Sequence record: PZ445540.1
Source of the DNA: a phage
Reading direction: 5' to 3' (one strand)
Length of the DNA: 40,233 bases
Shown: positions 17,671 through 33,178 of the stretch, one piece after another
Layout of the letters: each line of letters starts with the position of its first letter
How positions within the stretch are numbered: position 1 is the stretch's first letter
Notes under the pieces: model-generated
Told to the model about the DNA's origin: nothing
The model's database searches: none
Seen by the model: the letters and a program-made list of their open reading frames with translations, nothing else
Made by a program: the position numbers and the translations under genes

Positions 17671-17933
17671 TGATAAAATTTTTGGCTATTACAACCTGTT
17701 TTATCCTGACTGGATGCGCTTATAAAGAATCAACGGTTGCTGCTGACTGCACAGCAGTTTATACGCTGAAAACATTTGTGGTCGGAGGTGATTATCCTGT
17801 CAAGATTAATGCGGTCAGGCATGACAGATTTGGGCGAGTTTATTATCGTGCAGCACCAGGGCAATCGTATGTGAATTTTTATGGTCGCTGGCAGCCAGCG
17901 GCTTCATTTAAGCATGGAGACTGCCCACGATGA
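17670..17933 (+). CDS. small lipoprotein (Cor/Llp-like superinfection-exclusion candidate)
   Basis: 87 aa; signal peptide with lipobox LTGC; start overlaps the J stop; position immediately 3' of J. Confidence 0.45.
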   Translation: MIKFLAITTCFILTGCAYKESTVAADCTAVYTLKTFVVGGDYPVKINAVRHDRFGRVYYRAAPGQSYVNFYGRWQPAASFKHGDCPR

Positions 17934-18202
17934 GCTATGGATACCAAATATTTGATGCTACTGGGGTGGATGTAACTGGCCTGATCACCCCCGTATTTTT
18001 CCTTGACAAGTTGACATCGCCATCAGGGACCAAAACATACCCTGCCCCACCGGCAGGTAAAACGCTTAAGGCATTAGTGATAAATTCCATGCTCTGGAAT
18101 GGTTCTACAGGTAATTCGTCAGTTAGCGTCAGCGGAAATACTGTGACGTGGAGCGGTCTTGCAGGGAATTCTACATTTTTTGCCATGGTTTACTGGGGGT
18201 AG
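17930..18202 (+). CDS. hypothetical protein
   Basis: 90 aa; RBS GGAGA; begins MSYGYQIF, the same motif as the next gene. Confidence 0.4.
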   Translation: MSYGYQIFDATGVDVTGLITPVFFLDKLTSPSGTKTYPAPPAGKTLKALVINSMLWNGSTGNSSVSVSGNTVTWSGLAGNSTFFAMVYWG

Positions 18203-18204
18203 TG

Positions 18205-18822
18205 ATGTCATATGGTATGCAGATTTTGCGGCCGGACGGAAATTTATGGCTAAGTCCTGAGGTAACACCGATGAACCTTATTGATAAAGGTGTCATGGCT
18301 GGAACTAAGGGCGAGGTATTTCAGACGCGCATCCCATCAGGAATACCGGCTATCTTCTTTGTAAGAATGCAGAATGAATTGTACGCATCATTCAGCCAGA
18401 TTGACCAAAACGGATACAACTCACTCAGGATCGATGCTAATGCAGGTGTGGGGAGTATCCATATTTATGCTTTTGCTGCGATGGTAGTTGCTCCTCCAGC
18501 ATTTGGGATCGCGATGTATGACGCTTCAGGGAAAATGATTTATCACGGAAATATGAGGCCACTTGAGTGCTATCAGGTTGCAAGTCAGGGAACAAAAACC
18601 CGTATTGATGTTGGATATCTTGCCGCCGTGTGTCCTGTGCAGATGTCAGTATATTCAGTTGTTAACTCATCGGTTGGTGGATGGAATATATTCGTATCTT
18701 CATCATCAGCAAGTGGAAGCATTGTTTCCACGCCAAGCCGACAAGTTGCAAACACATCTGGTCCGGCAGGGTTCATATGGAGCAATTCAATGTTGGTCAT
18801 TAATGCATCAAAATATGATTAA
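18205..18822 (+). CDS. hypothetical protein (shares N-terminal motif with upstream gene)
   Basis: Internal ATG at 18205 with RBS GGGGG; ~205 aa; begins MSYGMQIL. Confidence 0.45.
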   Translation: MSYGMQILRPDGNLWLSPEVTPMNLIDKGVMAGTKGEVFQTRIPSGIPAIFFVRMQNELYASFSQIDQNGYNSLRIDANAGVGSIHIYAFAAMVVAPPAFGIAMYDASGKMIYHGNMRPLECYQVASQGTKTRIDVGYLAAVCPVQMSVYSVVNSSVGGWNIFVSSSSASGSIVSTPSRQVANTSGPAGFIWSNSMLVINASKYD

Positions 18823-18831
18823 GGAGTCATA

Positions 18832-20001
18832 ATGTCTGCAGGAACTATCACCCTGACAAATGGGTCCGCTGTTGTTGCCGGTACCGGAACCTCATTCGCA
18901 ACCGAGCTCGCCGCTGGTGATTTCATTGTTTCGACTGTGGGCGGTGTGCCCTACACGTTGCCGGTGAAAACAGTCGACAGTAATACCCAACTGACGCTAG
19001 TCAGCAACTTTACCGGGCCAACACAATCCGGCGCAGCCTGGTCTGCCGTTCCTCGCATTGCACTCAATATGGTTACGGCTGCGCTGGTGGCGCAAAGTGC
19101 CGAAGCACTACGAGGCCTGAACTACGACAAACGGAACTGGCAGCAGGTCTTCAGTGGAGCGGGGGATATCACTGTCACAATGCCGGATGGAACACAGTAT
19201 TCCGGTCCATCATGGCCTTCAATTGTCTCCTCTGTCAGCGGAAAGCTATCCTCTGACGCAACTACTCTAAGAAAGCTATTCACCGCTGCATTTGTGAATC
19301 CAGGGGATAACTGGCCGTATCCAGGAGTTACTACATATAATAACAATTTGTGGGGAAGCCCCAGCCAGTGGGGGACTGTACTTACGCTCTCTAATCAGGA
19401 TGTATCAGGTAGTAGTTACGATGGGCGCTGGTATAGTTACCTTCAGATAGATACCACTGGCAACTTTGCCGTTGCAGCGAACATTAACAATAACTTCTTC
19501 GGTGTCTACAGGGTCTGGACTACTAAAAACACAACTGTTGATGGCTCAGGCTTCATCAAGCGCGCCTCGCCGATTGCAAGACTGGTCGCAGACACTTCAA
19601 TTATGAGCGGCGAGTTTACTGACTCGTTTAAAATCTCCGGCAGCGGTGCGGTTAATGAAGAGGCGGAAGGTGTTGATATCGAAAAGCTGGGTGATGGTAG
19701 GTATCGGATTTCCGGTTCTGACGGTCTCGCACAGGATGGGTGGCAGATCGAAGTGCCGAAAGATATTAACGGCAATCGACTTTGCTTTGTTGAGGTCACG
19801 GAGGGTCTTGAGGGTATTCTTTTAAAAGTATTCAAGCCAAAACTTGACCTTGAAACTGGAGGGATCATTGCCGGTGAGTCTTTTGACATTCCAGAGGGGC
19901 GCTGGATTGATGTGAGGCTGCAAATGCCAGCAAGCTCAGCATACAATGTCGTTCAGGGAAAAATCGCAGGGCAACTTGAATCTCAGCAAATGGCCGGATA
20001 A
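18832..20001 (+). CDS. tail fibre protein
   Basis: 389 aa; strong RBS AAGGAG; Gly/Ser/Thr-rich N-terminus typical of fibre proteins; position distal to J. Confidence 0.6.
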   Translation: MSAGTITLTNGSAVVAGTGTSFATELAAGDFIVSTVGGVPYTLPVKTVDSNTQLTLVSNFTGPTQSGAAWSAVPRIALNMVTAALVAQSAEALRGLNYDKRNWQQVFSGAGDITVTMPDGTQYSGPSWPSIVSSVSGKLSSDATTLRKLFTAAFVNPGDNWPYPGVTTYNNNLWGSPSQWGTVLTLSNQDVSGSSYDGRWYSYLQIDTTGNFAVAANINNNFFGVYRVWTTKNTTVDGSGFIKRASPIARLVADTSIMSGEFTDSFKISGSGAVNEEAEGVDIEKLGDGRYRISGSDGLAQDGWQIEVPKDINGNRLCFVEVTEGLEGILLKVFKPKLDLETGGIIAGESFDIPEGRWIDVRLQMPASSAYNVVQGKIAGQLESQQMAG

Positions 20002-20007
20002 ACCAGC

Positions 20008-20036
20008 ATAAAAAAGCCCTGCGACCGGGCAATGAC
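20008..20036 (-). terminator. minus-strand intrinsic terminator
   Basis: Reverse complement reads gcccggtcgcagggc followed by TTTTTTAT. Confidence 0.45.
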
Positions 20037-20265
20037 TCAGCCGCGCCTCTCTGAGCAGGCTACGGGGTGGGTAATTTGAGATTAGTCACCCATAAACGAA
20101 GCCGCCAGATTAAAATTTCAGCGCCAACAGTGGCTTTACAAAACAGTGAGCCGTTTCGCCTTGATCAAATCTACCGATCGATATTACTGTTTATCCATGG
20201 GTCTTCCCTTGTTGTGGTGGCTGAAGGCATGATAATGGCGTATTAAATCGCCAGAGGTCACCACC

Positions 20266-20598
20266 ATGGACGAAAAGTCCCTCTATGCACATATCCTCAA
20301 CTTGTCAGCTCTGTGGCAGGTAAAGTCTCTTTCTCTCGATGAAAATACCGCTTCTGTTACCGTTACTGTCGGAATCGCTGAAAAATACTCAGTTGACCTG
20401 TCGTTAAAAGTGACGCAAGGAAGCGTCCTGCTTATCCGCCTGGCTGGCGAACTGCAGTTTGCAAAATTGATGGGTGAATCGTTTATCACAGAGGATGGTG
20501 AGGCGATAGAAGGCGAATCGTTGGAGGATGTGATCGTTGTAGGCAGGGTGACTTATTTTGTTAATCGGGCAGGGGAAGATGACTGCCCGATACTTTAG
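20266..20598 (+). CDS. hypothetical protein (b-region)
   Basis: 110 aa ORF with RBS AGAGG; no recognisable motifs. Confidence 0.4.
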   Translation: MDEKSLYAHILNLSALWQVKSLSLDENTASVTVTVGIAEKYSVDLSLKVTQGSVLLIRLAGELQFAKLMGESFITEDGEAIEGESLEDVIVVGRVTYFVNRAGEDDCPIL

Positions 20599-20926
20599 AA
20601 ATGATGTGTACATATTGGTGTACTTTATTTCTTTTTAAAGAATAAAAAACTACATAAAAAACATAAAGTTGTTCTGTTGTGTAACTATATCCACTGCAGT
20701 ATTTGAGGGCGGACGTACTGAGCTTAAAGACGGAGCGGTAGTTGAGAAAACCTAATCGGTCGATGTTACCGGCGCTTCAGCAGCGCTTCACCATGAGGCT
20801 ATTCTGGCTTTAATGGATCAAATTGAAGATTTAAAGAAACAGGTAGAGGCATTACAGCCAGGAAGTTGATGAAACCGCCGCTCATCGTAAGCAATGATGG
20901 GCGGCGACAGATTGCCCGAACAATCT

Positions 20927-21193
20927 CTACAGGCCAACCTGGCGAACAGTCGGGAACTCTGAAACCAGCCACATATCGGACTCTTCAAACATTTCCTCCA
21001 GCATGCGGTTCAGCTTTTCCCGATCGCTTTTGCTGGCATCGCTATTCAGGCCGTTCGCCTGCATCGGCTTTACCTTCACTTCGGCATCAGGAAAAATTTT
21101 GTGCACCCGCTTTGTTAGTTCAGCCAGGATGATCTCTCTGGCCCCTTCGAGCCCCTCAACATTACGCTTGTCATAAACCAGTTCTACGAACAT
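20927..21193 (-). CDS. dinI: DinI-like SOS-inducible protein
   Basis: Internal ATG at 21193 with GGAG RBS gives 88 aa; 'ELTKRVHKIFPDAEVKV...DMWLVSE' aligns with the E. coli DinI pattern; LexA box in the promoter. Confidence 0.75.
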   Translation of the reverse strand: MFVELVYDKRNVEGLEGAREIILAELTKRVHKIFPDAEVKVKPMQANGLNSDASKSDREKLNRMLEEMFEESDMWLVSEFPTVRQVGL

Positions 21194-21208
21194 AAATGCT
21201 CCGCTAAT

Positions 21209-21228
21209 CACTGTTTGAATATACAGTA
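21209..21228 (-). promoter_or_regulatory. LexA (SOS) box upstream of the DinI-like gene
   Basis: caCTGTttgaatatACAGta matches CTGT-N8-ACAG with an AT-rich centre, 16 nt upstream of the start codon. Confidence 0.6.
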
Positions 21229-21256
21229 TTTTTGCTTTGGCGGTTTTGTCTGTCAA

Positions 21257-21547
21257 GGCATGAACAACTTGTTTTTATATTTTGGGGAACGTACTGCTGG
21301 CGTGTTTGTTATCGATTAGCCCTACAGGGCTGATGTGGTCTGGCGCTGACTAAAATTATGCGTGGGGCATGGATGGGGCAAAAGTGGTCTGTGAAGTTCG
21401 TTAAAGTTCGTTAATCAAGCTTTATCTCGATCTCTCTCATCCCTTGTTTAAAGCGCTCCTGGACGATCTTTATCGATTTTAAAAACTATGAGTTCATATT
21501 ATACAAATGTAGCAATAGTGCTGCTAACCATTTGAATATAAAGTTTT
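21257..21547. other. candidate attP region
   Basis: Non-coding stretch directly 3' of int; tandem 10-bp repeat agttcgttaa x2 (21395-21414) and a GATGGGGCAAAG motif shared with the int 3' end. Confidence 0.35.
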
Positions 21548-22840
21548 CTACTGCGCTACTAACATGCCTTGGGGCAGCGATGGGGCAAAGCGTGAAAGCG
21601 CCTGGTTAAGCAGAGAAACCTGTTCGGCACTCTTCTCTGACATCCACTTTCCATACACTTTGTAAACCATCTGAGCATCTGTATGCCCCATCTGAGTTGC
21701 TATAAAGTTTGGGTTTGCCCCAGCTGATAATGACCAGCACGCATAAGTGTGTCGTGACTGGTAGGCGTTGCGGTACCGTATTCCGGCGCGCTTGATTATC
21801 GGGGCCCAAATTTTATTAATCGAATTAACCGCGTAGTGATATCCTCTACGAGGCCCATGCTTGACGCATTGAGGACTGAAAACGAAAGTGCAGGGGTGTA
21901 TGACTGACTGGCCATATTCCCGCAATTTCACTTCAATCTCATACTGCCGGCCAAGGCGCGTCAGCTGGGCCTGATTCCTCAGGGCATCAATAGCTGGTTG
22001 AATGAGATAAATCACCCTGTCAGTGCCTGCGTCGGTTTTTGGCAGGGTGAACTCATTCGTCTGGGTAAGGTTGCGTTTCACTGTGATGGTTCCGGCATGC
22101 AGATCGATATCTTCCCACGCCAGACCGCACAACTCCCCATGCCTCATTCCAGTATAGACTGCCAGCGACCAGAGATTTCTCATCTGCTGGTGGCCGCAAG
22201 CCTGGATAAACCGGATAAACTCTTCTGTCGTGAGTGGGTCTGGTTCACCTTTCGCTTTTTTGAGACGGTTAATTCCGCTAAACGGGTTTTCCTTTGCGTA
22301 GCCGTTATCAGCTGCAAACTGGAAGATCTCGGCCATCAGCATCATGTAATTATTCACGGTCGAAGACTTCCTGCCTTGAACCTGTGTCCGGTGATCCTTC
22401 TTCATTACATGAAAACCCGTCAGCAACTCCTTTCTCACGTACAGCAAATCCTCAGTGGTCACCGCAGAAACCATTTTGTTTTCGCCGATGCGCGGAAGCA
22501 TGTTTTTTATGATGGATTCGTAACGACTCATAGTGTTAGAGCTGATTTCCATCCTCTTCAGCTCAGACCACTTTTCGGTAAGCTCCAGCACAGTAATTTC
22601 CTTTCTATCCTGACCGAACCGGGCAAGGTTCGGTGAGTTTGGGAATTTTTCCGCATAGTCAAAATTTCCCATCCTTATCGCAAAACAAACTGAAGAACGC
22701 AGCTCACCAGCTATCTTGCGATTTTTTGCAGTGTCAGGGACACCGAGGTTTTCCCTGACACGTTTACCTTTATACAGAAACCAGATGCGGAGCGAACCGC
22801 CGTGGTTTTCGACGCCTGTCGGGTATGATGCATTAGCCAT
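21548..22840 (-). CDS. int: tyrosine integrase
   Basis: Start set at ATG 22840 (RBS AGGAGGG), 430 aa; C-terminal catalytic region with 'HTYACW' motif typical of tyrosine recombinases. Confidence 0.9.
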   Translation of the reverse strand: MANASYPTGVENHGGSLRIWFLYKGKRVRENLGVPDTAKNRKIAGELRSSVCFAIRMGNFDYAEKFPNSPNLARFGQDRKEITVLELTEKWSELKRMEISSNTMSRYESIIKNMLPRIGENKMVSAVTTEDLLYVRKELLTGFHVMKKDHRTQVQGRKSSTVNNYMMLMAEIFQFAADNGYAKENPFSGINRLKKAKGEPDPLTTEEFIRFIQACGHQQMRNLWSLAVYTGMRHGELCGLAWEDIDLHAGTITVKRNLTQTNEFTLPKTDAGTDRVIYLIQPAIDALRNQAQLTRLGRQYEIEVKLREYGQSVIHPCTFVFSPQCVKHGPRRGYHYAVNSINKIWAPIIKRAGIRYRNAYQSRHTYACWSLSAGANPNFIATQMGHTDAQMVYKVYGKWMSEKSAEQVSLLNQALSRFAPSLPQGMLVAQ

Positions 22841-22884
22841 TGATCCCTCCTGACGTCCAGGAGCGTGGACGAGTGTACTGCTTT

Positions 22885-23139
22885 TCATGCTGTCTTCGCA
22901 CCTGGTTGATTTTTTTTCTGCGCCTCGATCCACTGATCAACGGCTTTTCTGTTGTACATGCATTCGCTCGAAGGCTTTGGATTGCCATCGGGTGAGATGT
23001 GCAGGTACTCGCGGCCCAGCATCCAGGATTCTTTTCTGGCGCGGGTGATGGTTCCGGGCTTGAGCCCGGTAACCGCAATCAGAACCTTTTCGCTAACCCA
23101 GTCATTCGGCACCAAAAGAACAACATCGCTCATACCCAC
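22885..23139 (-). CDS. xis: excisionase-like DNA-binding protein
   Basis: 84 aa; immediately upstream of and overlapping the int reading frame; RBS GAGGTG. Confidence 0.55.
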   Translation of the reverse strand: MGMSDVVLLVPNDWVSEKVLIAVTGLKPGTITRARKESWMLGREYLHISPDGNPKPSSECMYNRKAVDQWIEAQKKNQPGAKTA

Positions 23140-23195
23140 CTCACATCACAATCAGATCACGGCAGTGGAACCACACATTATTCAAATTGACCATT

Positions 23196-23528
23196 TCATC
23201 CATTGGCGGCCTCCTTGCTGAATCCAGCATTGATAACGCTTTTGGCAATTTCGCTGGCGGTGGCGTAGGCCAGCTCTCCATCCTCACCACCAACAGCTTT
23301 CATCAGTTCATTCTTGAGAACGCTCTCGTAATCGCGTGGCCAGAATTCCGTGGGCATGTCGAAGGCCATGCAGTAGAAGAAGGTGTCGATCGTTATTTTG
23401 GCGGCCTCCTCCTCTGTTCTCTCAGGCTGGCGATAACCAGCTTCCCAGATAGCATCGGTCATTGCAGAGGGATCGCCGGCAGCGGATTTAATCAATTGAA
23501 CAAGCTCGAACAAATTCGACTCACTCAC
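23196..23528 (-). CDS. hypothetical protein
   Basis: 110 aa acidic ORF in the early-left operon. Confidence 0.4.
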   Translation of the reverse strand: MSESNLFELVQLIKSAAGDPSAMTDAIWEAGYRQPERTEEEAAKITIDTFFYCMAFDMPTEFWPRDYESVLKNELMKAVGGEDGELAYATASEIAKSVINAGFSKEAANG

Positions 23529-23904
23529 TGCACACCTCCATTTCCCTTTCTACGGACTCACAGCAGCGGCGGAAAATTTCAGCTGATACCTCATTCATCA
23601 GGGCCCTGATGAGCAATTCATCCCGCGATTTTTGACGCTCAATATTTCTCTCTCGCTCCAATTGACGCAATACGGCCAGGCGGGCAGTGATACGTTTCCG
23701 TGTGTTCTGCCACTTAACCCGCGCTACATTTGCCCGGTGCCGCCAGCCGTAGTCGTTGTCGATAACGGTTTCAAGCTGCGAATTGATACTGGCAATGACA
23801 TCTTCAGCCGTGACCAGCGCCTGCAGGTGGTCGTTTATTGTGACCAGTTGGTTAACATCAATGGATTCAGCTTTCATCCAACAATCCTCCAAAGCAGCTT
23901 GCAT
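23521..23904 (-). CDS. hypothetical protein
   Basis: 127 aa; RBS GGAG; Arg/Glu-rich central segment. Confidence 0.4.
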   Translation of the reverse strand: MQAALEDCWMKAESIDVNQLVTINDHLQALVTAEDVIASINSQLETVIDNDYGWRHRANVARVKWQNTRKRITARLAVLRQLERERNIERQKSRDELLIRALMNEVSAEIFRRCCESVEREMEVCSE

Positions 23905-23999
23905 ACTCCGATAAAACAGTAGAACCCCGCTGTTAACCCAATCCCCGTAAGGCTGGAGAAGAAAAGAGTAAACATCACCAGCTCAGATACTTTTTTCAT
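23874..23999 (-). CDS. small hydrophobic peptide (41 aa)
   Basis: Hand-translated MKKVSELVMFTLFFSSLTGIGLTAGFYCFIGVCKLLWRIVG; one predicted TM helix; overlaps the start of the downstream gene. Confidence 0.25.
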   Translation of the reverse strand: MKKVSELVMFTLFFSSLTGIGLTAGFYCFIGVCKLLWRIVG

Positions 24000-24418
24000 T
24001 GGCCCGCACCTTTCTTAGTAGCAGTGATGTAACCTTCCAATCCGCCATAACTGTTCACCATATCCCCCAGTCTTGAGAAACAGGCGTTCAACCAGCGAAT
24101 TCCACGAGGGGTTAGCGTTGGCACCGTGCCCCAGTCGATGAAATCCGAGTTTTTTCGACCCATATAGCGGATGAGATCGAGAATGTTGATGTAATGTGCA
24201 CGGCGACGCTCCATACTCCATCCCTTATCAGCGAGGTACGAGTCGATGAATCCCTGTAATGCTGTCTGATTAAGCGAAATATCACCGTACTGGTGGCGAT
24301 ATACAGGGCGACGGTGCAGGCTGACCAAATGAAACAAGTAGGCATCACATACACATGTCAGAGCCTGCCGGTGGGCCAGCTCAATAGAGCCAGCCGGATT
24401 CCAGATATCATTATTCAC
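23996..24418 (-). CDS. hypothetical protein
   Basis: Start tentatively GTG 24418 (RBS GGAGGG 8 nt upstream, just after the Lar-like stop), ~140 aa; the longer 182-aa ORF would overlap the Lar-like gene. Confidence 0.35.
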   Translation of the reverse strand: MNNDIWNPAGSIELAHRQALTCVCDAYLFHLVSLHRRPVYRHQYGDISLNQTALQGFIDSYLADKGWSMERRRAHYINILDLIRYMGRKNSDFIDWGTVPTLTPRGIRWLNACFSRLGDMVNSYGGLEGYITATKKGAGQ

Positions 24419-24419
24419 T

Positions 24420-24671
24420 TCAGAAACCCTCCGGCTTAATGATCTGAAATCGCCCCACTGATGGGTGCTCAAGAATTTGGTATGAATCTGTCGCTTCTTT
24501 CGGCCGTGGTGCTCGCTGGTTCCAGATGGCCGCAGCCATATCACGAGCTTGCGGAGCTAGACTCACACTGCAGCAATCGCAACGGACTACAAACATTGGC
24601 TCGCCTTCATAAAGCACAGAATCGAAATCTATTTCATCGTTGCCACAAAGTGGGCAAGGAAGCAGTTCCAT
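24420..24671 (-). CDS. lar: Lar-family restriction alleviation protein (zinc ribbon)
   Basis: 'LLPCPLCG...VVRCDCCSV...AAAIWNQRA' fits the Lar-family pattern CPxCG...CxxC...A..WN.R. Confidence 0.6.
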   Translation of the reverse strand: MELLPCPLCGNDEIDFDSVLYEGEPMFVVRCDCCSVSLAPQARDMAAAIWNQRAPRPKEATDSYQILEHPSVGRFQIIKPEGF

Positions 24672-25537
24672 TATTTGGCCTCCGGTGAATAAATCGCTTT
24701 GTCGTGGCTGTACTCGCCATTCAAAGTCTTTTTCATTGGCAGCTCACCTTTCATGTACAGCTGATACAGACGGTGACAGCCTTTCTCCAGCAGTACTGGC
24801 GTAAACTTCGTGAAAGCATCCTTGCCGTGCGGGGTGATCTGCGTCTGGTCTTCCGTCAGATATTTGTCGCGGGCATATGAGGCGACGCGCCAGCGCGGAT
24901 CTTTCTCTGGGTCGCGTTGCTCGTTAAACACCCAGCCACGCTCGGACGCCCACCACATCATTTTGTTGATGTTGACGCCGTTCAGCGCCTTGCTGAATGC
25001 TGGGATCGTCATGCCTTTGGTGAAGTGCTTCTCCAGGCTTTCAACAGTGGCGCTGAGGGTCCTGGTTTCGAGTGCAGCGGCTTCGGCGCGTTCTTCGGCT
25101 TCAATTACCATCAAGGCAAGTTCTTTTCGGCTAAGTGTCAGCGGTGTTGCCGGCGTTGCAATAGAGGCGCGGCGGGTGAAATAAAACTCAGCCATATCGT
25201 CGTAGAATTCCCAGGACTGATCTGTCTCGAGAATTTTGGCGTGGTTAGCTGCACCGCGTTCAGTCCAAAGAGTCAGGGTGCGAGCTTTGCTTGAGATTTG
25301 CAGTCCGCTGAAAGAGTTGCGCAAAATTTCAACATCTCCGCCAGAAAGCTTGAAGTAATGTTTACCTTCAACGAACCGGGATTTGTTGCGGTTGAAGTTG
25401 TTGGTGATCATCTGCTCGGTTGCGCCATATCCTGCCGCCAGCTGTTCAGTGGTCACAACTCGCTGACCGCGATACTCGATGATCTGCAGGTCACGGGCCG
25501 CTACTGGTGCTAATTCTGCTTTCATTGCCATCTTCAT
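24671..25537 (-). CDS. phage antirepressor (ORF6N/KilA-N-type N-terminus + antirepressor C-terminus)
   Basis: 288 aa; N-terminal 'RVVTTEQLAAGYG...FVEGKHYFKLSG' resembles the ORF6N domain of Ant/Bro-type proteins. Confidence 0.65.
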   Translation of the reverse strand: MKMAMKAELAPVAARDLQIIEYRGQRVVTTEQLAAGYGATEQMITNNFNRNKSRFVEGKHYFKLSGGDVEILRNSFSGLQISSKARTLTLWTERGAANHAKILETDQSWEFYDDMAEFYFTRRASIATPATPLTLSRKELALMVIEAEERAEAAALETRTLSATVESLEKHFTKGMTIPAFSKALNGVNINKMMWWASERGWVFNEQRDPEKDPRWRVASYARDKYLTEDQTQITPHGKDAFTKFTPVLLEKGCHRLYQLYMKGELPMKKTLNGEYSHDKAIYSPEAK

Positions 25538-25543
25538 TGCTCC

Positions 25544-26050
25544 TTAATGCAAAACGTGATTGGCTGGCATTGTTTTACCGGTGCGCAGCTGGGCAGCGAG
25601 ATCTACAAAAATCTCGTCGAGAAACTCTGCGAACCACGAATGACCGACTTCTTTCAGGCGCTGATCGTTGGCGTAGTAGAACTGGTAAACCGCCAGATAG
25701 CGTTCCTCAGGCTTGTGCTCGATCAGTGCGCACTCCACATGCTTAATCAGCAGATTTTCAATAAGTTCCCGGGTTAAGCCGAAGGTAAACTCCTCGGTTT
25801 TAAACTGGTATTGCCCGTCACGGAGTCCCCAGCGGTTTTCGCAGCTGATGAGATAAAGAAGGGCGACCGTACCGCGCATGGACTGGACGACGGTTTGAGC
25901 CCACTCATGCTGCTCTTCTAAAGTAAGGGAGCCCTTGCCATAGCGGTTTTCGTCAAGCATCCAACCAGGAATCGTTACGTCGGATTGCTTCTGGATTTCC
26001 TTCAGGCGAGCAACAAGCTGCTTCACGTTATCTTTTTCAAAGTCAGTCAT
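25544..26050 (-). CDS. hypothetical protein
   Basis: 168 aa ORF in the early-left operon. Confidence 0.4.
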   Translation of the reverse strand: MTDFEKDNVKQLVARLKEIQKQSDVTIPGWMLDENRYGKGSLTLEEQHEWAQTVVQSMRGTVALLYLISCENRWGLRDGQYQFKTEEFTFGLTRELIENLLIKHVECALIEHKPEERYLAVYQFYYANDQRLKEVGHSWFAEFLDEIFVDLAAQLRTGKTMPANHVLH

Positions 26051-26265
26051 CTGTCTTTCTCCCGGTTATAGGTTTCATGGCTCATTACTTCCCAGTTCTT
26101 GCCGCCATCGCGGGATAGTAGCCGCCAGCGGAGATTCACACTCAGGCTCAGATAGCCAGTCTTGTGCATGCGGCGGGGGTGGATCCGCCCGGCGCGGTGC
26201 TGGCGCAGCACACGCACAGCCCTTTCGTGAACCCATTCAGGGATTCGGATCGCAGTAAGTGTCAT
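26047..26265 (-). CDS. hypothetical small basic protein
   Basis: 72 aa, Arg/His-rich. Confidence 0.35.
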   Translation of the reverse strand: MTLTAIRIPEWVHERAVRVLRQHRAGRIHPRRMHKTGYLSLSVNLRWRLLSRDGGKNWEVMSHETYNREKDR

Positions 26266-26633
26266 GAATGCTCCTGCGTGATGGCCGCTGTTTTCTTAGC
26301 ATGTTCGACCAGCTCTGCCACAAGCTCATCAACCAGCAGCTTTCCGCTTTCAGTCAGGTATTCGCCATGACCATTCACATCAACTGCATTCCGGTACAAA
26401 TCGCGGATAGCTTTATCGCCTGCCACCGGGCCATGCTCACTTCGCGCCATTTTTTCAAACCGGCACAGAAGCCCGTCGAATAAAATCTCGGTCAGCTCCA
26501 TGGTCGTTATTCCGCCTTTCGGAAGAGTAATAACAATGCAGGTTGTGCCTGTTTTACGTTGGTGGCGTAATAACGCTGCCTTTAAAATTCGGCGTCGGTA
26601 GGTTTCAATTACGTTGTTTTTCACGGCGTTCAA
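26262..26633 (-). CDS. hypothetical protein
   Basis: 123 aa ORF in the early-left operon. Confidence 0.4.
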   Translation of the reverse strand: MNAVKNNVIETYRRRILKAALLRHQRKTGTTCIVITLPKGGITTMELTEILFDGLLCRFEKMARSEHGPVAGDKAIRDLYRNAVDVNGHGEYLTESGKLLVDELVAELVEHAKKTAAITQEHS

Positions 26634-26808
26634 ACTCCGAATCCATCCACATAGAAACCTGAGCCGATAAATCGAGGCAGAGGCCTGATAAGGAAATTAT
26701 TTGCTCAATATCCATATCAGTAATGTTCGAGTTAATTAACTCCATTAACTGATAAAGGTTATCTGCTGTGTTTTTAGCGGTTTCGATTGAACTATCTTTG
26801 CTAAGCAT
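26605..26808 (-). CDS. hypothetical protein
   Basis: 67 aa ORF, AT-rich. Confidence 0.3.
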   Translation of the reverse strand: MLSKDSSIETAKNTADNLYQLMELINSNITDMDIEQIISLSGLCLDLSAQVSMWMDSEFERREKQRN

Positions 26809-27000
26809 ATTCAGACTCCATAAGCTTTGCGCATGAAAAGGTCTGTGATATGGCGGTATTCTTCGCCATAGGCCTCGAAGAAAAGCCGCGCAGTTTTATA
26901 AGCTGCTCTGTCTTTGATGAATGTCATTTTTAACCTAATCCTGTTTTCAGGTTGCAGGAAGCCACACCAGTGAAGGTGTTATTTGTTTTATTGTTTAGCG

Positions 27001-27423
27001 TTACTTATTGAATTCGATCTTGTCCGCTTTAGAGCTAATAATGCTCTGCATTTCATCCAGTTTTTGGGAGACGAGACTTAAAACCCCAATTGAGTTTGAT
27101 TCTGTTGGTATATCATCCATTGAATTATAAACGGCAAGCTTACAATCGCCGATATCACAAGCCCAAGAGTTAAGTTGATTAGCTAGCGCTGTTAGCGACT
27201 CTAATTTTTGTCCCCGTTGACACTCAGCTCCAGCATGGATGCTAAGTTGCTCCACATACTCGTAAGCAGTTTGGCTGGTCTTTAGCATAGAACGAATCAG
27301 GCAGGAAATTGTGTTATCGGCTTCCGGTGAAAATTCATTTATGCGGTAAATAACCTCCAGTAACGAAGCATTCTCAGTGATTTCCGCAGCAATATCATTT
27401 AGCATTTCGATTGGATTTTTCAT
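27001..27423 (-). CDS. hypothetical acidic protein (second gene of the pL operon)
   Basis: 140 aa; ~40% GC; start overlaps the upstream stop by 1 nt. Confidence 0.45.
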   Translation of the reverse strand: MKNPIEMLNDIAAEITENASLLEVIYRINEFSPEADNTISCLIRSMLKTSQTAYEYVEQLSIHAGAECQRGQKLESLTALANQLNSWACDIGDCKLAVYNSMDDIPTESNSIGVLSLVSQKLDEMQSIISSKADKIEFNK

Positions 27424-27623
27424 TATCGTTTATCCCATTCATTTTTATGGGCCTCGTTTGCATAGTTGCAGGCAAACGCGAGAAGAATGTCGCTAATTTC
27501 TCTATACTCGTCATCATCAACCGCCGATAACAAACTAGCTGCTTCAACAATCAAGGACATATTCTTGAAGGCATCACAAGGATGGATGGACAACCCCTTA
27601 AATGTTTTTATCTTCTGAGACAT
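27423..27623 (-). CDS. hypothetical small protein (first gene of the pL operon)
   Basis: 66 aa; just downstream of the OL-like operator cluster; not Arg-rich, so not an N-like antiterminator. Confidence 0.4.
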   Translation of the reverse strand: MSQKIKTFKGLSIHPCDAFKNMSLIVEAASLLSAVDDDEYREISDILLAFACNYANEAHKNEWDKR

Positions 27624-27668
27624 TTTCTATCACCTCTGAGTTGATTTGATAGAATGATGATAGAGCCT

Positions 27669-27716
27669 GCTATTGGTCTTTGCAATAGGTATTGCTATTT
27701 AAATTGCTATTGATTT
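27669..27716. promoter_or_regulatory. OL-like operator cluster
   Basis: CTATTGgtctttgCAATAG inverted repeat plus two ATTGCTAT half-sites; same motif family as at OR. Confidence 0.55.
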
Positions 27717-27956
27717 TTATGTCATTGATATCAAAAATGAAAAAATCTATTGCTGATGTGTTTGTAACAGCACGGTAGAAATAATTGTCCTTTAGACAGT
27801 GATCTACCAATACATGAGATATCGGGAGTTGGAGCATCGAAGCTTGAGAATAAAATGGACTGTGAAAGGGCGAGATACTCGCAGAGAGAAAGAGGGTAGG
27901 AGTTCCGATCAGGTAGTTGCCCGCCTGGTTGACTGGTGGTTACTATTGTGGGGGCA

Positions 27957-27983
27957 CATAGAAAACCCGGCGCACTGGCCGGG
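27957..27983 (-). terminator. intrinsic terminator downstream of cI
   Basis: Minus-strand hairpin cccggccagtgcgccggg followed by TTTTC. Confidence 0.55.
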
Positions 27984-28036
27984 TTAAGAATCTACTCAGC
28001 TTGTTATGCGTAAGTTTTTATTTTCATTTGCATTAT

Positions 28037-28744
28037 TCACCCATGCTTCCTGTAGGTCTGCGGCATGCTGCCGATCACCTTTCCGAAGATGAAAATTTTG
28101 TTCATCTCTTCCTTCTCGATTGGTTCCCATGGTAGATAGGTATGGTTGTCAGAGATAACTAAGAGTTTGTCTTTCATCTTTTGTAAGCGCTTAACATGCG
28201 ATGTGTCATCGTAGATGAACGCGTATATACCGTCGCCGTCGAAATGCTGAACGCTGATATCGACGAAGAGTAAGTCCCCTGGCTCTATGGTGCCAGACAT
28301 GCTATCGCCTCGAACGTTGATGATGCGTATCTGCTCCTGTTTCCGGCCATTAAACATTTGACGGGCATCTTCAACTGAGTATTCCACGGAGCGCAGCACC
28401 TCCACGAATTCGCTGTTAATTATGCCCGGGCCAGCACTTACGGTAAGGTCGAGTACGTCAACTCTGAAGATGGCTGGATCTTTTTTGTTATTCATCGGTG
28501 GGGGTGGTTGTTGGTCGTCACCCCTCATTGGTCCAGTACCGTTTGATAGCCACTCCGAACGAACACCCAGGGCATTAGCTATTTCAACGATTTTAGTTGT
28601 GCCTCTAGCATTTCCAGATGTTATTCGCCATATGGTTGGTTGTGCCATATTCGCCGCTTTGGCTAACTGACCCTGGCTCATGCCCATCTCATGCATTGCG
28701 TAGTTAAGTCTGTCAGCTAGCGTCTTAAGTGTTCTCTCTTGCAT
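28037..28744 (-). CDS. cI: CI-type repressor (HTH + S24 LexA-like peptidase domain)
   Basis: Start at ATG 28744 with GGAGG RBS, 235 aa; N-terminal HTH ('MSQGQLAKAANMAQPTIWRI'); C-terminal 'GDSMSGTIEPGD' Ser and 'HVKRL' Lys of the autocleavage dyad. Confidence 0.85.
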   Translation of the reverse strand: MQERTLKTLADRLNYAMHEMGMSQGQLAKAANMAQPTIWRITSGNARGTTKIVEIANALGVRSEWLSNGTGPMRGDDQQPPPPMNNKKDPAIFRVDVLDLTVSAGPGIINSEFVEVLRSVEYSVEDARQMFNGRKQEQIRIINVRGDSMSGTIEPGDLLFVDISVQHFDGDGIYAFIYDDTSHVKRLQKMKDKLLVISDNHTYLPWEPIEKEEMNKIFIFGKVIGSMPQTYRKHG

Positions 28745-28782
28745 ATTTATAGCCTCCGCTATCACATTCTAGTCAAGCATGA

Positions 28783-28829
28783 TAAACAAGTCTATTGCTC
28801 ATTCCAATAGCAATTGCTATCATTATTTT
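28783..28829. promoter_or_regulatory. OR operator cluster between cI and cro
   Basis: CTATTGctcattcCAATAG inverted repeat, perfect palindrome ATAGCAATTGCTAT and a GATAGCAA half-site. Confidence 0.6.
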
Positions 28830-28858
28830 GATAGCAACTGAACGGGATTAGCAAAAAA

Positions 28859-29077
28859 ATGAAATCAGCAATTGAAAGAGCTATTGATGCTGCTGGAGGA
28901 GTAAATGCTCTAGCTCGCGCTATAGGTGTAAAACAACCCTCTGTCTCTCGCTGGAGAAAGGTTGGTGTTGTTGGGGTGGAACATGTGCCTGATGTTGCGG
29001 CCTTTACTGGGATTCCCGCCCATGAACTGAGACCTGACAAACCAAAATTATTCCCGCACCCGGGCAATGAGGTGTGA
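28859..29077 (+). CDS. cro: Cro-like repressor
   Basis: 72 aa; HTH 'GVNALARAIGVKQPSVSRW'; divergent from cI across the operator cluster. Confidence 0.75.
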   Translation: MKSAIERAIDAAGGVNALARAIGVKQPSVSRWRKVGVVGVEHVPDVAAFTGIPAHELRPDKPKLFPHPGNEV

Positions 29078-29078
29078 C

Positions 29079-29276
29079 ATGTCACATCCAATCACTACCG
29101 AAAACCAAATAAAGCCATTGGATATCGATTATCGCGATCCGCGCGGTGTGATTGTGCATGTCACCGGCTGGAATCGGGATAAGCAGCAGGTGTACTTCAC
29201 CAGGCAGGATTATCCGCATGAATGCATGCAGCCTGTCTGGAAGTTTCAAAATTATTTCAGGAGGGTTGTGGAGTGA
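29079..29276 (+). CDS. hypothetical protein (cII position)
   Basis: ATG 29079 with RBS GAGGTG just after the cro stop, 65 aa; no HTH recognised. Confidence 0.4.
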   Translation: MSHPITTENQIKPLDIDYRDPRGVIVHVTGWNRDKQQVYFTRQDYPHECMQPVWKFQNYFRRVVE

Positions 29277-30205
29277 GCAATTTCTTACAGCTCGTTGATC
29301 GTCCAATAGCCTTTCAACGGTCCTTCGTTCGCCTTGGCGTGGGTATTACAGGTGCATTGCTATTGTCACAGATTGTCTATTGGCAGAACCGCATGGAAGG
29401 GAATTGGTTCTACAAAACCCAGTCAGATCTCGAAGAAGAGACTGGATTAACGCGTTACGAACAAGAGGGAGCGCGTAAAAAGCTGGTTTCCTGTGGCGTA
29501 CTGGAAGAAGCAAAACGTGGCATCCCAGCAAAATTATATTTCAGAGTAAACCAGGAGCGCTTGGAAGAACTTCTACTCGGCGAAAACCAGCATGCAGGTA
29601 TGGGGAAAACCAACAAACAAGGATGCGGAATTTCCGCAAACAGTGATGCGGAAAACCAGCATGCAGGTATGGGGAAAACCAACGAGCAGTCATGTGGAAA
29701 TTCCGCATCCATTCATACAGTAGATTACCAGGAGACTACACAGAAGATTAATACAGAGAATAAATATCTTGGTGCATCGGCTGAAGCCGACACACCGAAA
29801 GTGAAATCTTCAACTGATTATTCTCCTGCATTTGAAGAAGCCTGGCAGGCATACCCAAAACGTAGCGGTGGAAATAACAAGCTAAGCGCATTCAAAGCCT
29901 GGAACGCACGTATTAAACAGGGCGTAAAACCAGAGACGATGCTGGAAGGGGTTAAGCGCTACGCAGCTTTCATGGCCTCTGAGGGAAAGATCGGTACTTC
30001 GTTCGTCAAGCAGGCGGCGACGTTCTTCGGGCCGGATAAACATTTCGATGAACCGTGGCTGGTAGAGACCCAGGAAAACAAAGTCCCTACCCGACAAGAC
30101 CAGTCCCGCTACGAGTGGTACGCAAAGTCTGATGACGGCTCTGCCGAAGTGTTTATCAATCAGTCAGCGATCGATCGCATGAACCGTGGCGGGTATCGCC
30201 CATGA
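29273..30205 (+). CDS. replication initiator / replisome organiser with internal iteron-like repeats
   Basis: Start set at GTG 29273 (RBS AGGAGG 8 nt upstream, overlapping the upstream stop); N-terminal HTH-like region; two 69-bp tandem repeats inside the ORF. Confidence 0.6.
   Translation: MSNFLQLVDRPIAFQRSFVRLGVGITGALLLSQIVYWQNRMEGNWFYKTQSDLEEETGLTRYEQEGARKKLVSCGVLEEAKRGIPAKLYFRVNQERLEELLLGENQHAGMGKTNKQGCGISANSDAENQHAGMGKTNEQSCGNSASIHTVDYQETTQKINTENKYLGASAEADTPKVKSSTDYSPAFEEAWQAYPKRSGGNNKLSAFKAWNARIKQGVKPETMLEGVKRYAAFMASEGKIGTSFVKQAATFFGPDKHFDEPWLVETQENKVPTRQDQSRYEWYAKSDDGSAEVFINQSAIDRMNRGGYRP
29576..29720 (+). repeat. two ~69-bp tandem repeats with internal palindrome (candidate origin iterons)
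   Basis: gaaaaccagcatgcaggtatggggaaaaccaac occurs at 29582 and 29651; each unit ends in a tgcggaatttccgca-type palindrome; AT-rich stretch follows. Confidence 0.5.
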
Positions 30206-30312
30206 AAATACTCCTCAAGCGTTTGCTGGTGGCCGGATATAACCACGGCGTTCTGTGCGAGGGATTTGTGAGATGGTTTTTTGTTAAATTCGATTTACGG
30301 AGTTTGTGAGTT

Positions 30313-32184
30313 ATGAGCCCAGCTGAACTATCAGAAAAACTATGGGATAACGCTGAACGCGTCGCTAAGTTTCTCCTTCCGAAAGGACATCTGGAGGGGA
30401 AGGAGTGGTGTGCTGGCAATACGAACGGTGACTCAGGCAAAAGCCTCAAGGTCAATATCGGCGGTAAAAAATCATGGGCTGACTTTGCCAGCGGAGACAG
30501 TGGTGACCTGCTGGATCTCTGGGTGCTGGTGCGTAATTGCCAACTGCACGATGCAATGCGAGAGGCGAAAGAGTTTCTTGGCCTGAAAGATGACGATCAC
30601 CACTTCGAAGCGAAGAAAAAAACGTTCTCTCGCCCGACGAAGAAGGGCGTTAAATCGGCCAGCAAATGCTACGACTATCTTGCTTCACGTGGCATTACCC
30701 GTGAAACGGCCGATCGTTTTAAAGTGACAGATGCGGTGGTCTGGTACCACGACGAAAACCGAGAGGTGCCTGCCGTGGCATTTCCGTATATCCGGAACGG
30801 CGAACTGCTTCAGGTAAAACGTATCGGTACCGAACGGCCAAACGGCAAAAAGCTAATTATGGCTGAAGCTGATTGTGAACCATGCCTGTTTGGCTGGCAG
30901 GCGCTGGATAAAAATACCCGCCTGGTAGTGCTGTGCGAGGGGGAGATTGACTGCATGACCTTCACGCAGCTTGGCTATGATGCCCTGTCTGTTCCCTTTG
31001 GCGGCGGTAAGGGTGCCAAACAGCAGTGGATTGAATATGAATACCATAACCTCGATCGCTTCCAGGAAATTTGGCTGTGCCTGGACAACGACGATGTAGG
31101 CCGTGAAGCTGCAAAAGAAATCGCCAGACGTCTTGGGGAACATCGTTGCCGCATGGTTGAACTTCCCCACAAAGATATCAACGATTGCCTGATGAACGGC
31201 ATGGACAGCGACTCCATTCTGGAATACATGGAGCGCGCCAAATTCTTCGATCCCGATGAGCTTTGCTCAGCAGGGGACTTGCTTCAGGAAACTATCGAGG
31301 CATTCGAACATCGGGATACCGGTCTGTTTACAAGCCCATGGGCTTCGCTGAACAACAACTTTAAGTTCCGTGCCGGTGAACTGACCCTCGTCAATGGGGT
31401 GAATGGACATGGAAAAACAGAGCTCGTTGGACATATCGCGATTGATGCGATGAGTCAGGGCGTCAGGACGTGTATTGCTTCTCTGGAGCTTAAACCAGGC
31501 AAAATGCTTGCCCGACTCACGCGGCAAACCATCTGCACTTCCTCACCGAAACGTGAAGAAATCATTATGACCAACGAATGGTTTTCTGACCGCCTTTGGG
31601 TATTCAAACTTACCGGAACGGCCAAAGCAGACCGGCTTCTTGAGATTTTTGCCTATGCCCGGCGCCGCTATGGCATTGAGCTGTTCGTCATAGATAACCT
31701 GGCTAAATGTGGCTTAGACGAAGAAGACTACACAGGTCAGAAGGACTTCATCGATACGCTGTGCGACTTCAAGAACGAGCATAACTGTCACGTCCTGCTG
31801 GTTACCCACGCCAGAAAAACAAACGACTCCGCTCCAACCGGAAAGATGGACGTAAAAGGCACTGGCGCCTTAACCGACATGCCCGACAACGTTATGGCCG
31901 TCTGGCGCAACATTCCCCGTGAGCTGGCGCAGAGAAAAGCGGATCGTATGGGTTATGAGAGCCTCGACAAAGACGAACAGGCCGCGATCAATCTCCCCGC
32001 CTCAATGATTCGTTTGTTGAAGCAACGAGAAGGCGAAGGGTGGATCGGAGACATCGGAGCTAATTTCGACTCTCGCTCTCACCAGTTCCTGGAAGGCGAG
32101 AAAAAACCATTTAACTACCTGGTCGGTAAGCCGCAAAGCGAGCTTGATCTCGAGTGGGAAGCCAGCAACGTAACGAGGGTTTGA
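30313..32184 (+). CDS. bifunctional DNA primase-helicase (TOPRIM + DnaB/RecA-like)
   Basis: 623 aa; TOPRIM motifs ('VVLCEGEIDCMT', 'CLDNDDVGREAA'); Walker A 'GVNGHGKTE' and Walker B 'ELFVIDNLAK'. Confidence 0.82.
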   Translation: MSPAELSEKLWDNAERVAKFLLPKGHLEGKEWCAGNTNGDSGKSLKVNIGGKKSWADFASGDSGDLLDLWVLVRNCQLHDAMREAKEFLGLKDDDHHFEAKKKTFSRPTKKGVKSASKCYDYLASRGITRETADRFKVTDAVVWYHDENREVPAVAFPYIRNGELLQVKRIGTERPNGKKLIMAEADCEPCLFGWQALDKNTRLVVLCEGEIDCMTFTQLGYDALSVPFGGGKGAKQQWIEYEYHNLDRFQEIWLCLDNDDVGREAAKEIARRLGEHRCRMVELPHKDINDCLMNGMDSDSILEYMERAKFFDPDELCSAGDLLQETIEAFEHRDTGLFTSPWASLNNNFKFRAGELTLVNGVNGHGKTELVGHIAIDAMSQGVRTCIASLELKPGKMLARLTRQTICTSSPKREEIIMTNEWFSDRLWVFKLTGTAKADRLLEIFAYARRRYGIELFVIDNLAKCGLDEEDYTGQKDFIDTLCDFKNEHNCHVLLVTHARKTNDSAPTGKMDVKGTGALTDMPDNVMAVWRNIPRELAQRKADRMGYESLDKDEQAAINLPASMIRLLKQREGEGWIGDIGANFDSRSHQFLEGEKKPFNYLVGKPQSELDLEWEASNVTRV

Positions 32185-32187
32185 GAT

Positions 32188-33003
32188 ATGGAACTTGAAG
32201 CATCACTAAAACACTTTAGCCCTCAGGGTATGCACATCAGCGACGACGTGAAAGGAACCTCTCCGGACCGCCTTACAGGAACAGATGTAATGGCGGCGAT
32301 TGGCACCACCAGCAGCCGTGCGCGCTTCGGCCTGGCGGCGTTCTTCGGTAAAGCGGGAATCAGCAAAACCGATGAACAGCTCGCAGTTCAGGCGCTGGCG
32401 CGATATGCGATGGATGTCGCACCGAAGAATGTTCGCAAAGCAGCTGGTGGCCAGTTCGGATGGTGTATGCAGATGCTGGCGCAATTTGCCTTTGCTGATT
32501 ATTCCCGTTCGGCGGCTACCAGCGTGACGTGTCACAGCTGCAGCGGTACCGGACGAACAACCCGCGAGCAGATTACCCGCAAGGTTTCGTACCCATGGGG
32601 TAAAGCTCCATACTGGGCCTGCCGCTCTCGTGCTGTTCGACCGTCTGACTGGGAGCAGTGGACGGAGGTAACAGAGGTTGTACCGGCGGTCTGTGATGCT
32701 TGCGATGGCATGGGAACGATCAGCGCCCGTTGTCGTTGCGGCGGTAAAGGCGAGGTTCTAGACCGCAAAGCGACTAAAGACCGCGGCGCACCGGTTTTCA
32801 AAACGTGTGAACGTTGCTCTGGTAATGGCTTCTCTGCTATCTCCTCGGCGACGGTACACCGTGCCATTCTGAAGCGTCTCCCGGACCTTCATCAGTCCTC
32901 ATGGTCACGCAACTGGAAACCCTTCTATGAAATGCTGGTGGACACTTTGCGTCAGGGGGAGCGTCATGCTGCTTTAGAATTTGAGAAGGCAACAACTTAT
33001 TGA
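32188..33003 (+). CDS. Cys-rich protein with four DnaJ-type CxxCxGxG repeats (possible late-gene antiterminator)
   Basis: 271 aa; CSGTGR, CDGMGT, CGGKGE, CSGNGF repeats; sits where lambdoid Q genes sit, upstream of the late leader and lysis genes. Confidence 0.45.
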   Translation: MELEASLKHFSPQGMHISDDVKGTSPDRLTGTDVMAAIGTTSSRARFGLAAFFGKAGISKTDEQLAVQALARYAMDVAPKNVRKAAGGQFGWCMQMLAQFAFADYSRSAATSVTCHSCSGTGRTTREQITRKVSYPWGKAPYWACRSRAVRPSDWEQWTEVTEVVPAVCDACDGMGTISARCRCGGKGEVLDRKATKDRGAPVFKTCERCSGNGFSAISSATVHRAILKRLPDLHQSSWSRNWKPFYEMLVDTLRQGERHAALEFEKATTY

Positions 33004-33117
33004 TGTGATCGGAACAAATAGCGACACTTTTTTGCACGTTAGTGTTGACTTTGCATAAAACTGTCCTGTATGCTTCTAATCGTGGAAGATACCGTCCAAA
33101 CGAAATTAATCATTGAA

Positions 33118-33145
33118 ACCCTGCCTCGGCGGGGTTTTTGCTTTT
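33118..33145 (+). terminator. intrinsic terminator 1 in the late leader region
   Basis: ccctgcctcggcgggg (one G-U wobble) followed by TTTTTGCTTTTC. Confidence 0.5.
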
Positions 33146-33150
33146 CTAAG

Positions 33151-33178
33151 GCTGCCAATGGGTGGCCTTTTTTGTTTC
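33151..33178 (+). terminator. terminator-like hairpin 2
   Basis: gctgccaatgggtggc (stem includes wobble pairs) followed by CTTTTTTGTTT. Confidence 0.35.

Follow-up and report, generated by a model that had tools for sequence, protein, structure and literature searches.

We examined two adjoining genes in a 40,233-nt stretch of phage DNA (PZ445540.1; hereafter the window), one encoding a Lar-like zinc-ribbon protein and the other an Ant-like protein with an ORF6N domain. The region that holds them is identical (100%) to Escherichia phage SaltyDalty (PP925825.1), with the identity spanning window positions 15900-34300, and that record annotates the genes as 'anti-repressor' and 'Lar-like restriction alleviation protein'. 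They are thus already annotated in GenBank under these names, and both are known kinds of phage accessory genes. By a small balance of probability, we favor reading them as ordinary accessory genes, a Lar-type zinc ribbon beside an ORF6N-KilAC regulator, that a lambdoid temperate phage carries in its leftward (PL) operon under CI repression. The gene structure, domain content, operon context, conservation and linkage described below were observed directly. The original prediction had called the genes a counter-defense pair that combines restriction alleviation with heteroimmune anti-repression. It recognized the two adjoining genes correctly, as Pfam (34.5 and 83.8 bits), PHROGs and the PP925825.1 annotation agree, and the observation is confirmed far beyond chance. 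Its interpretation, which echoes the output of annotation pipelines, is only partly supported, and its functional claims for both proteins come from family names only.

Two minus-strand open reading frames (ORFs) occupy positions 24420-25537 end to end. The ant-like gene (24671-25537, stop codon included) encodes 288 aa when read as the longest ORF. The second ATG, at 25531, is probably where translation really begins, for a product of 286 aa, because the closest homologs, named 'ORF6N domain-containing protein', are 286 aa long and an AAGGAG sequence lies just 5' of this codon. The Lar-like gene (24420-24671, stop codon included) encodes 83 aa. At the junction (24669-24683, minus strand), the stop codon of the ant-like gene and the start codon of the Lar-like gene share one base (TAATG, 24669-24673), and a Shine-Dalgarno sequence, GGAGG (24679-24683), is placed 7 nt 5' of the Lar-like ATG. 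This arrangement implies that the genes are co-transcribed, and their translation is probably coupled. In phage Fostie the gene order is conserved, with a nucleotide identity of 76%.

The Lar-like protein matches the Pfam family Lar_restr_allev (PF14354) over residues 2-54, with E=2.4e-08 and 34.5 bits against a gathering threshold of 28.6, covering model positions 2-58 of 58. It also falls in phrog_599, 'Lar-like restriction alleviation protein' (8.2e-10). Residues 2-54 (24510-24668, minus strand) form a Lar-type zinc-ribbon core, CPLCG ... CDCC, that is followed by a helix ending WNQR. Across 16 aligned homologs, C6-x2-C9, C31-x-C33-C34 and W50-N51-Q52-R53 are invariant, giving the four-Cys zinc ribbon and WNxR helix of the Lar family. 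An AlphaFold2 (AF2) model shows the core as a β-hairpin and a helix, with predicted local distance difference test (pLDDT) values of about 77-85 over most of the core and a moderate 67.5 for the whole model. When this model was compared with BFVD using Foldseek, about 14 of the top 20 matches were named 'Restriction alleviation protein' or 'Lar family' (prob 1.00), and the target-normalized template modeling score reached at most 0.73 among the top 34 matches, a resemblance to the Lar-family fold. A PDB sequence search with the protein returned chance matches alone (E ~0.5).

Beyond the core lies a conserved C-terminal tail specific to the subfamily (residues 55-83; 24423-24509, minus strand). 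Its 29 residues follow the pattern RP..A...EHP..GRFQ, in which R56, P57, A60, E68, H69, P70, G73, R74, F75 and Q76 are invariant, and AF2 predicts a β-hairpin here with low confidence. The Lar-like subfamily comprises 18 clusters, all from Enterobacterales. The ratio of nonsynonymous to synonymous substitution rates (dN/dS) for the ORF is 0.07-0.16 against four relatives, while a fifth comparison, to Yersinia, is saturated at synonymous sites. The ORF is under clear purifying selection and is a real gene. Judged on these matches, the protein is a borderline, divergent member of the Lar family for which an anti-restriction role is plausible.

The 'Lar-like restriction alleviation protein' label goes back to one characterized protein, Lar of the Rac prophage (RalR; E. 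coli K-12 b1348), whose mechanism is disputed. Lar alleviates EcoKI restriction and enhances modification according to King & Murray 1995, as cited in PMC6158711 and PMC4041452. Guo et al. (PMC4041452) describe RalR as a nonspecific DNase toxin with a small RNA (sRNA) antitoxin. A Lar homolog of phage Bas63 is conditionally important across hosts (PMC11482910). RalR and the Lar-like protein have in common the CPxCG motif, a second Cys pair and a helix ending WNxR, and each is encoded within the early leftward operon of a lambdoid element, in the stretch that separates the immunity region from xis-int. The Lar-like protein is 19 residues longer than RalR, which ends in an unrelated Gly/Asn-rich tail.

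RalR toxicity has been mapped to positions 14, 37, 39, 49, 51 and 52, and a K52Q substitution abolishes DNA cleavage (PMC4041452). In an alignment anchored on WN(K/Q)R, five of these six positions differ in the Lar-like protein, including T37 to S and K52 to Q, leaving N51 as the only identity. Every member of the Lar-like subfamily has Q at position 52. Because N51 alone is kept and Q52 equals the inactivating K52Q change, a RalR-type DNase mechanism is unlikely for the Lar-like protein. We saw no RalA-like antitoxin context; the Rfam scan of the window at gathering thresholds gave only STnc100, elsewhere, and no search was aimed at a RalA-like RNA. Lambda Ral, which promotes modification via the HsdM N-terminal domain and so protects early against type IA restriction (PMC12707154), shares its operon position and proposed role with the Lar-like protein. 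This likeness is one of role only: Pfam searches up to an E of 10 found nothing Ral-like, whether of the lambda or the P22 type, and Lar_restr_allev was the sole significant match.

The Ant-like protein begins with an ORF6N domain (PF10543; residues 18-102, 25232-25486, minus strand), matched at E=1.1e-23 and 83.8 bits against a gathering threshold of 27.8 over model positions 2-86 of 86. PHROGs places the protein in phrog_63, 'anti-repressor Ant' (2.2e-39), and its homologs form 1664 clusters. The domain is predicted to adopt a winged-helix-like fold, with AF2 pLDDT values of 72-87. In Foldseek searches with the ORF6N model, the best matches were the DHD winged-helix domains of SKI, SnoN and Dachshund (prob 0.97-0.99 but E 0.06-0.15), and the APSES domain of Mbp1 was matched weakly. 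This predicted likeness fits the known kinship of these viral DNA-binding modules. A PDB sequence search with the whole protein gave no match. PADLOC gave matches for the ORF6N region alone (residues 14-147), to three models of the candidate defense system PDC-S05 (E 5e-09 to 2.5e-06), which we set aside as a shared domain and not as evidence of defense.

A long helix, probably a coiled-coil linker (residues 137-172; 25022-25129, minus strand), follows the ORF6N domain. AF2 predicts it with low confidence, and many of its residues are invariant across 29 homologs. It leads into the C-terminal domain (residues 160-288; 24674-25060, minus strand), which resembles a divergent KilAC (ANT) domain by Pfam matching, phmmer relatives and profile alignment. 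A phmmer search with these residues against 1.84 billion representatives recovered 149 representative relatives, and 115 of them were scanned with Pfam together with the Ant-like protein of the window. ANT/KilAC was matched independently in 36 of these 116 proteins, with a best value of 1.3e-09. The N-terminal domains in the scanned relatives alternate among Phage_pRha (49), Bro-N (22), KilA-N (9), ORF6N (6), AntA (5) and P22_AR_N (2). A profile of the C-terminal domain aligned weakly (8-10 bits) but collinearly with the KilAC domains of A118 gp42 and phi11 Gp07. In Pantoea and Symbiopectobacterium prophages, the C-terminal domain (~80% identity) and the Lar-like gene are kept, while the N-terminus is unrelated and not of the ORF6N type. 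Because of this transitive homology to ANT and the alternating N-terminal domains, we describe the protein as an ORF6N domain followed by a long helix and a divergent KilAC domain, with the last assigned by sequence at the superfamily level. Neither the whole protein nor its C-terminal half matched P22_AR_N, P22_AR_C or AntA in Pfam.

The original prediction also placed both genes in an early-left operon, and this setting holds up well. From 27623 to the integrase gene at 21548, every ORF lies on the minus strand, and the packing is tight. At their head, downstream of cI and its terminator-like hairpin, a promoter scan identified a σ70-like, PL-like promoter (TTGCAA-17-TATCAT, 27685-27657, minus strand) set in operator palindromes (27657-27712; repeat families D1, I4 and I13). 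Palindromes of the same CAATAGCAATTGCTAT type recur in the cI-cro intergenic region (28779-28822), and 27657-27698 is 74% identical to 28779-28820. We take the two regions, 27657-27712 and 28779-28822, to be the putative leftward (OL) and rightward (OR) operators with palindromes of the CAATAGCAATTGCTAT type in common. A 'hypothetical protein' coding sequence annotated in GenBank at 27670-27837 overlaps the PL-like promoter and its operators and is probably spurious.

The CI-like repressor itself (28037-28744, minus strand) combines a helix-turn-helix motif with a LexA/UmuD-type S24 autocleavage domain and belongs to PHROG 4 and 6201, 'CI-like repressor'. Its S24-type NCBIfam matches (ECH1013_TF_S24, UmuD subunit and LexA) are all far under their cut-offs and indicate similarity at the domain level only. 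Promoter and LexA-box scans found neither a promoter-like site nor a LexA box near ant. Given the tight packing of the minus-strand genes, a PL-like promoter whose operators are common to OR, and the lack of a promoter or LexA box near ant, the sequence supports CI control of both genes well. The S24 domain of CI makes the classical RecA-dependent route of induction available. With ant behind a CI-controlled promoter and this autocleavage domain in CI, the Ant-like protein cannot be the trigger of induction. A LexA-controlled antirepressor of the Gifsy GfoA/GfhA or SPC32H Ant type was also considered and is ruled out by the lack of a LexA box or own promoter near ant and by the S24 domain of CI.

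We then asked how firmly the two genes are linked. A gene of the Lar-like subfamily lies directly after a KilAC-domain gene in every locus examined (about 35, including the window, Fostie and near-identical IMG/VR contigs). The one-base stop/start overlap is identical in all subfamily loci, which come from Salmonella, Yersinia, Pantoea, Symbiopectobacterium, Escherichia and 20 IMG/VR contigs. The view from the KilAC side comes from 23 species-level genome loci of the C-terminal domain, where some contigs end before any downstream gene. A Lar-type gene follows the KilAC gene in 4 of the 23, and 2 of these 4 have a larger form of 133-137 aa. In most other KilAC loci the next gene encodes a phrog_24826 protein, an excisionase or an unrelated protein of ~200 aa; the phrog_24826 protein directly follows ant in loci that have no Lar-like gene (L012 and L014). 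The upstream flanks of more distant Lar relatives, in IMG/VR (L056-L059, at most 49% identity) and in phage Akira, contain no KilAC gene, which rules out a general Lar-Ant adjacency across the Lar family.

The linkage of Lar to KilAC is therefore one-sided, and the genes are not an obligate functional pair. The slot after the KilAC gene is a cargo-exchange hotspot, and the linkage pattern is most simply read as a single mosaic block passed down within a narrow Enterobacterales lineage. The 'pair' of the original prediction thus stands as an adjoining arrangement with a one-base overlap, but as a unit it fails on the rarity of Lar-type genes behind KilAC and on the distant Lar relatives without KilAC. 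Other occupants of the slot have features of their own. The larger Lar-type proteins, encoded right after the KilAC gene at 4381-4794 of L015 and 4378-4779 of L017 (a Pantoea and an Enterobacteriaceae prophage), carry an N-terminal extension of ~75 residues ahead of a CPFCG zinc ribbon. In four other loci (L018, L031, L032 and L033), which are prophages of Xenorhabdus, Enterobacter and Serratia and a near-identical contig assigned to a Chitinophaga bin, the gene after KilAC encodes a conserved 191-218-aa protein with the motif ...LRAAL.CVA...GV.IT...I.A.NG.... Most other Xenorhabdus loci have yet another protein of ~200 aa after the KilAC gene.

The reading we favor, of two accessory genes under CI control, leads to a simple model. 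Both genes would most likely be made only after infection or after CI inactivation. By analogy with Rac Lar, the Lar-like protein would most plausibly protect unmodified phage DNA from type I (EcoKI-type) restriction. For the Ant-like protein, the ORF6N domain would most plausibly bind DNA and the KilAC domain a protein target, such as a repressor, RecA or another part of the SOS system, or the division machinery. It would then strengthen or adjust the lytic program and would not be what sets off induction.

Several findings weigh against this reading. The biochemical activities of both proteins are inferred from sequence throughout. The Lar-like protein scores 34.2 bits against NCBIfam TIGR03655 (anti_R_Lar), under the cut-off of 39.6, and because of this shortfall NCBI names within the subfamily are mixed, either 'Lar family' or 'hypothetical'. 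It is only 22% identical to RalR over 54 residues, and its conserved tail has no counterpart in the characterized Lar. On the side of the Ant-like protein, the direct Pfam match to ANT (PF03374) is sub-threshold (E=0.074; 13.8 bits against 25.3), although it is collinear over model positions 24-105 of 108. The AF2 model of the C-terminal domain has pLDDT values below 60, a low confidence from which we draw no fold. Finally, at least three different activities are reported for KilAC proteins, so that the Ant-like protein cannot be assigned a target.

The word 'antirepressor' is likewise an inherited label, as judged from the sequence relationships. It originates with P1/P7 Ant1 and Ant2 and P22 Ant, which are proven antirepressors, and 'anti-repressor' now covers a modular superfamily whose characterized members have at least three different activities. 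According to PMC9043618, P1/P7 Ant1 and Ant2, proteins that bind the C1 repressor, are linked with the AntA/AntB and KilAC domains. The ant genes of P1/P7 and P22 have their own control and occupy separate immunity regions, whereas the ant-like gene lies in a CI-repressed PL operon. In phi24B, derepression after induction is accelerated by Ant (PMC3064807), a P22-type protein from another family than the Ant-like protein. The original prediction's 'antirepressor' therefore survives as a family assignment (ORF6N, phrog_63), but not further: there is no P22_AR match and no LexA box or own promoter, and the same architecture occurs, besides antirepressors, in SOS and division inhibitors. At most, the Ant-like protein may reinforce derepression, act in trans on other prophages, or work in an AriS-like or Kil-like way. 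For an ORF6N-KilAC protein there are at least three roles of comparable plausibility, and heteroimmune antirepressor is one of them.

A dedicated counter-defense pair, in which the Lar-like protein blocks type I restriction and Ant inactivates the repressors of heteroimmune resident prophages, is an unlikely alternative that nonetheless draws on several observations. Both family names point this way, the genes share the PL-operon position of lambda ral and Rac lar, and trans-acting antirepressors are known in Salmonella Gifsy prophages (PMC3121763). The same Ant and Lar module is found in Salmonella prophages beside at least three different repressor types and so shows no sign of cognate repressor-antirepressor pairing. 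This variety is compatible with a non-cognate target, yet on the whole it neither helps nor hurts the heteroimmune idea. Heteroimmune anti-repression by the Ant-like protein has no direct support: the protein is unrelated in sequence to the P22, Gifsy and other proven enterobacterial antirepressors, and its gene lacks a LexA box. Moreover, KilAC genes usually occur without Lar and distant Lar relatives without KilAC, so the two genes do not behave as one functional unit.

Another alternative that we rate as unlikely is that the Ant-like protein is no antirepressor but resembles AriS of Listeria, with a KilAC domain that dampens the SOS response of the host, probably by way of RecA, and an N-terminal domain that regulates phage genes. 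Such activities have been described for AriS and A118 gp42 (PMC9043618). Like the Ant-like protein, these are two-domain proteins with an interchangeable N-terminal phage DNA-binding domain before a KilAC-type domain, are annotated 'anti-repressor', and are expressed with early lytic genes (PMC9043618). The C-terminal profile aligns collinearly, if weakly, with the KilAC domain of A118 gp42, an AriS homolog of demonstrated activity, and the phage carries other SOS-linked genes, one DinI-like behind a LexA box and one UmuD-like. However, the Listeria proteins have an AntA/B N-terminus where ORF6N is found here, and they come from another host phylum. The C-terminal domain is very divergent from Firmicute KilAC (8-10 bits, with Pfam ANT sub-threshold), and AriS activity was demonstrated in Listeria only, mainly on overexpression.

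Host takeover of the Kil type, in which the KilAC domain blocks division or growth, seems to us quite unlikely. KilAC domains alone give filamentation or bacteriostasis; growth or cell division is blocked by phi11 Gp07 and by CreP, a stand-alone KilAC protein (PMC5944126; bioRxiv 10.1101/2024.01.05.574328), and the kil genes of lambda and Rac lie at the same operon position as the ant-like gene. Gp07 has an analogous two-domain layout (Bro-N plus KilAC), and CreP and P1 KilA, the latter also reported as an inhibitor of growth or division, have a KilAC-type domain in common with the Ant-like protein. These relationships are distant, and the divergence of the C-terminal domain counts here as it does for an AriS-like activity. 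The wide prophage spread of the Ant-like protein is neutral on this point.

The strict adjacency of the two genes raises another possibility, that the Lar-like zinc ribbon serves the KilAC domain as a dedicated partner (a regulator, chaperone or antidote) in a single two-component module. The Lar-like gene follows the KilAC gene with the same overlap in all of the ~35 subfamily loci examined, even where the N-terminal domain is swapped, the invariant extra tail could serve as a docking element, and a second, larger Lar-type protein fills the same slot in L015 and L017. However, most KilAC genes of the clade have no Lar (4 of 23 genome loci do), L056-L059 and phage Akira have distant Lar relatives without an upstream KilAC gene, and the pattern fits inheritance of one mosaic block by 18 clusters of a narrow Enterobacterales lineage. 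We rate a partnership as very unlikely. A more specific form of it is slimmer still: that the subfamily is not anti-restriction but a translationally coupled KilAC partner docking by its invariant tail, for instance a zinc-ribbon modulator of a RecA/SOS or division effector. If this specific form were true, many phage 'Lar-like' annotations would be functionally misleading. The case matters mainly for annotation hygiene, as it shows two widely propagated phage labels that have very thin evidence behind them. Highly improbable, finally, is a Lar-like protein that acts as a RalR-type DNase toxin, with alleviation an indirect response to DNA damage, or as the toxin in a toxin-antitoxin system of type I; shared Pfam membership and the reported toxicity of Rac Lar with its sRNA antitoxin (PMC4041452) speak for it, and the altered toxicity residues against it.

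The wider map of the window follows the lambdoid standard. Structural genes are followed by a moron region with UmuD-like and DinI-like genes, int and xis, the small leftward genes that include the Lar-like/ant-like pair, the CI-like repressor, a Cro-like gene, replication genes, a Q-like gene and lysis genes. On the minus strand, the two genes are flanked downstream by a 140-aa ORF (23996-24418, phrog_24826) and upstream by a 168-aa ORF (25544-26050, phrog_37204). The window, at 40,233 nt, exceeds the deposited genome of SaltyDalty (36,900 nt) by 3,333 nt and has no terminal repeat. The module was not found in E. coli complete genomes, where only the ParE-like end of the query matched (3 of 5426 genomes); the closest homologs come from Enterobacter, Salmonella, Klebsiella and Cronobacter.

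That ParE-like end belongs to another gene of the PL operon. It encodes a 72-aa protein with a ParE-like toxin domain (26047-26265, minus strand; PF24732, E=1.6e-21), lies directly after the gene of a phrog_1737 protein (26262-26633, minus strand), and may form a toxin-antitoxin-like pair with it. In Yersinia and Pantoea prophages (L008, L010 and L011), the ParE-like gene again lies upstream of the ant module, two or three genes away. Between the tail genes and int, the only perfect LexA box of the scan, CTGTTTGAATATACAG (21211-21226), lies under a TTGACA-17-AAAAAT promoter ahead of the DinI-like gene (20927-21193, minus strand). With the nearby UmuD-like ORF (20266-20598, plus strand; phrog_3469), these elements make up an SOS-linked moron cluster. 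Lastly, the STnc100 sRNA (33218-33421, plus strand; Rfam 59.3 bits against a gathering threshold of 47) lies just 3' of the Q-like antiterminator gene (32188-33003) and is probably a leader transcript of the late promoter.

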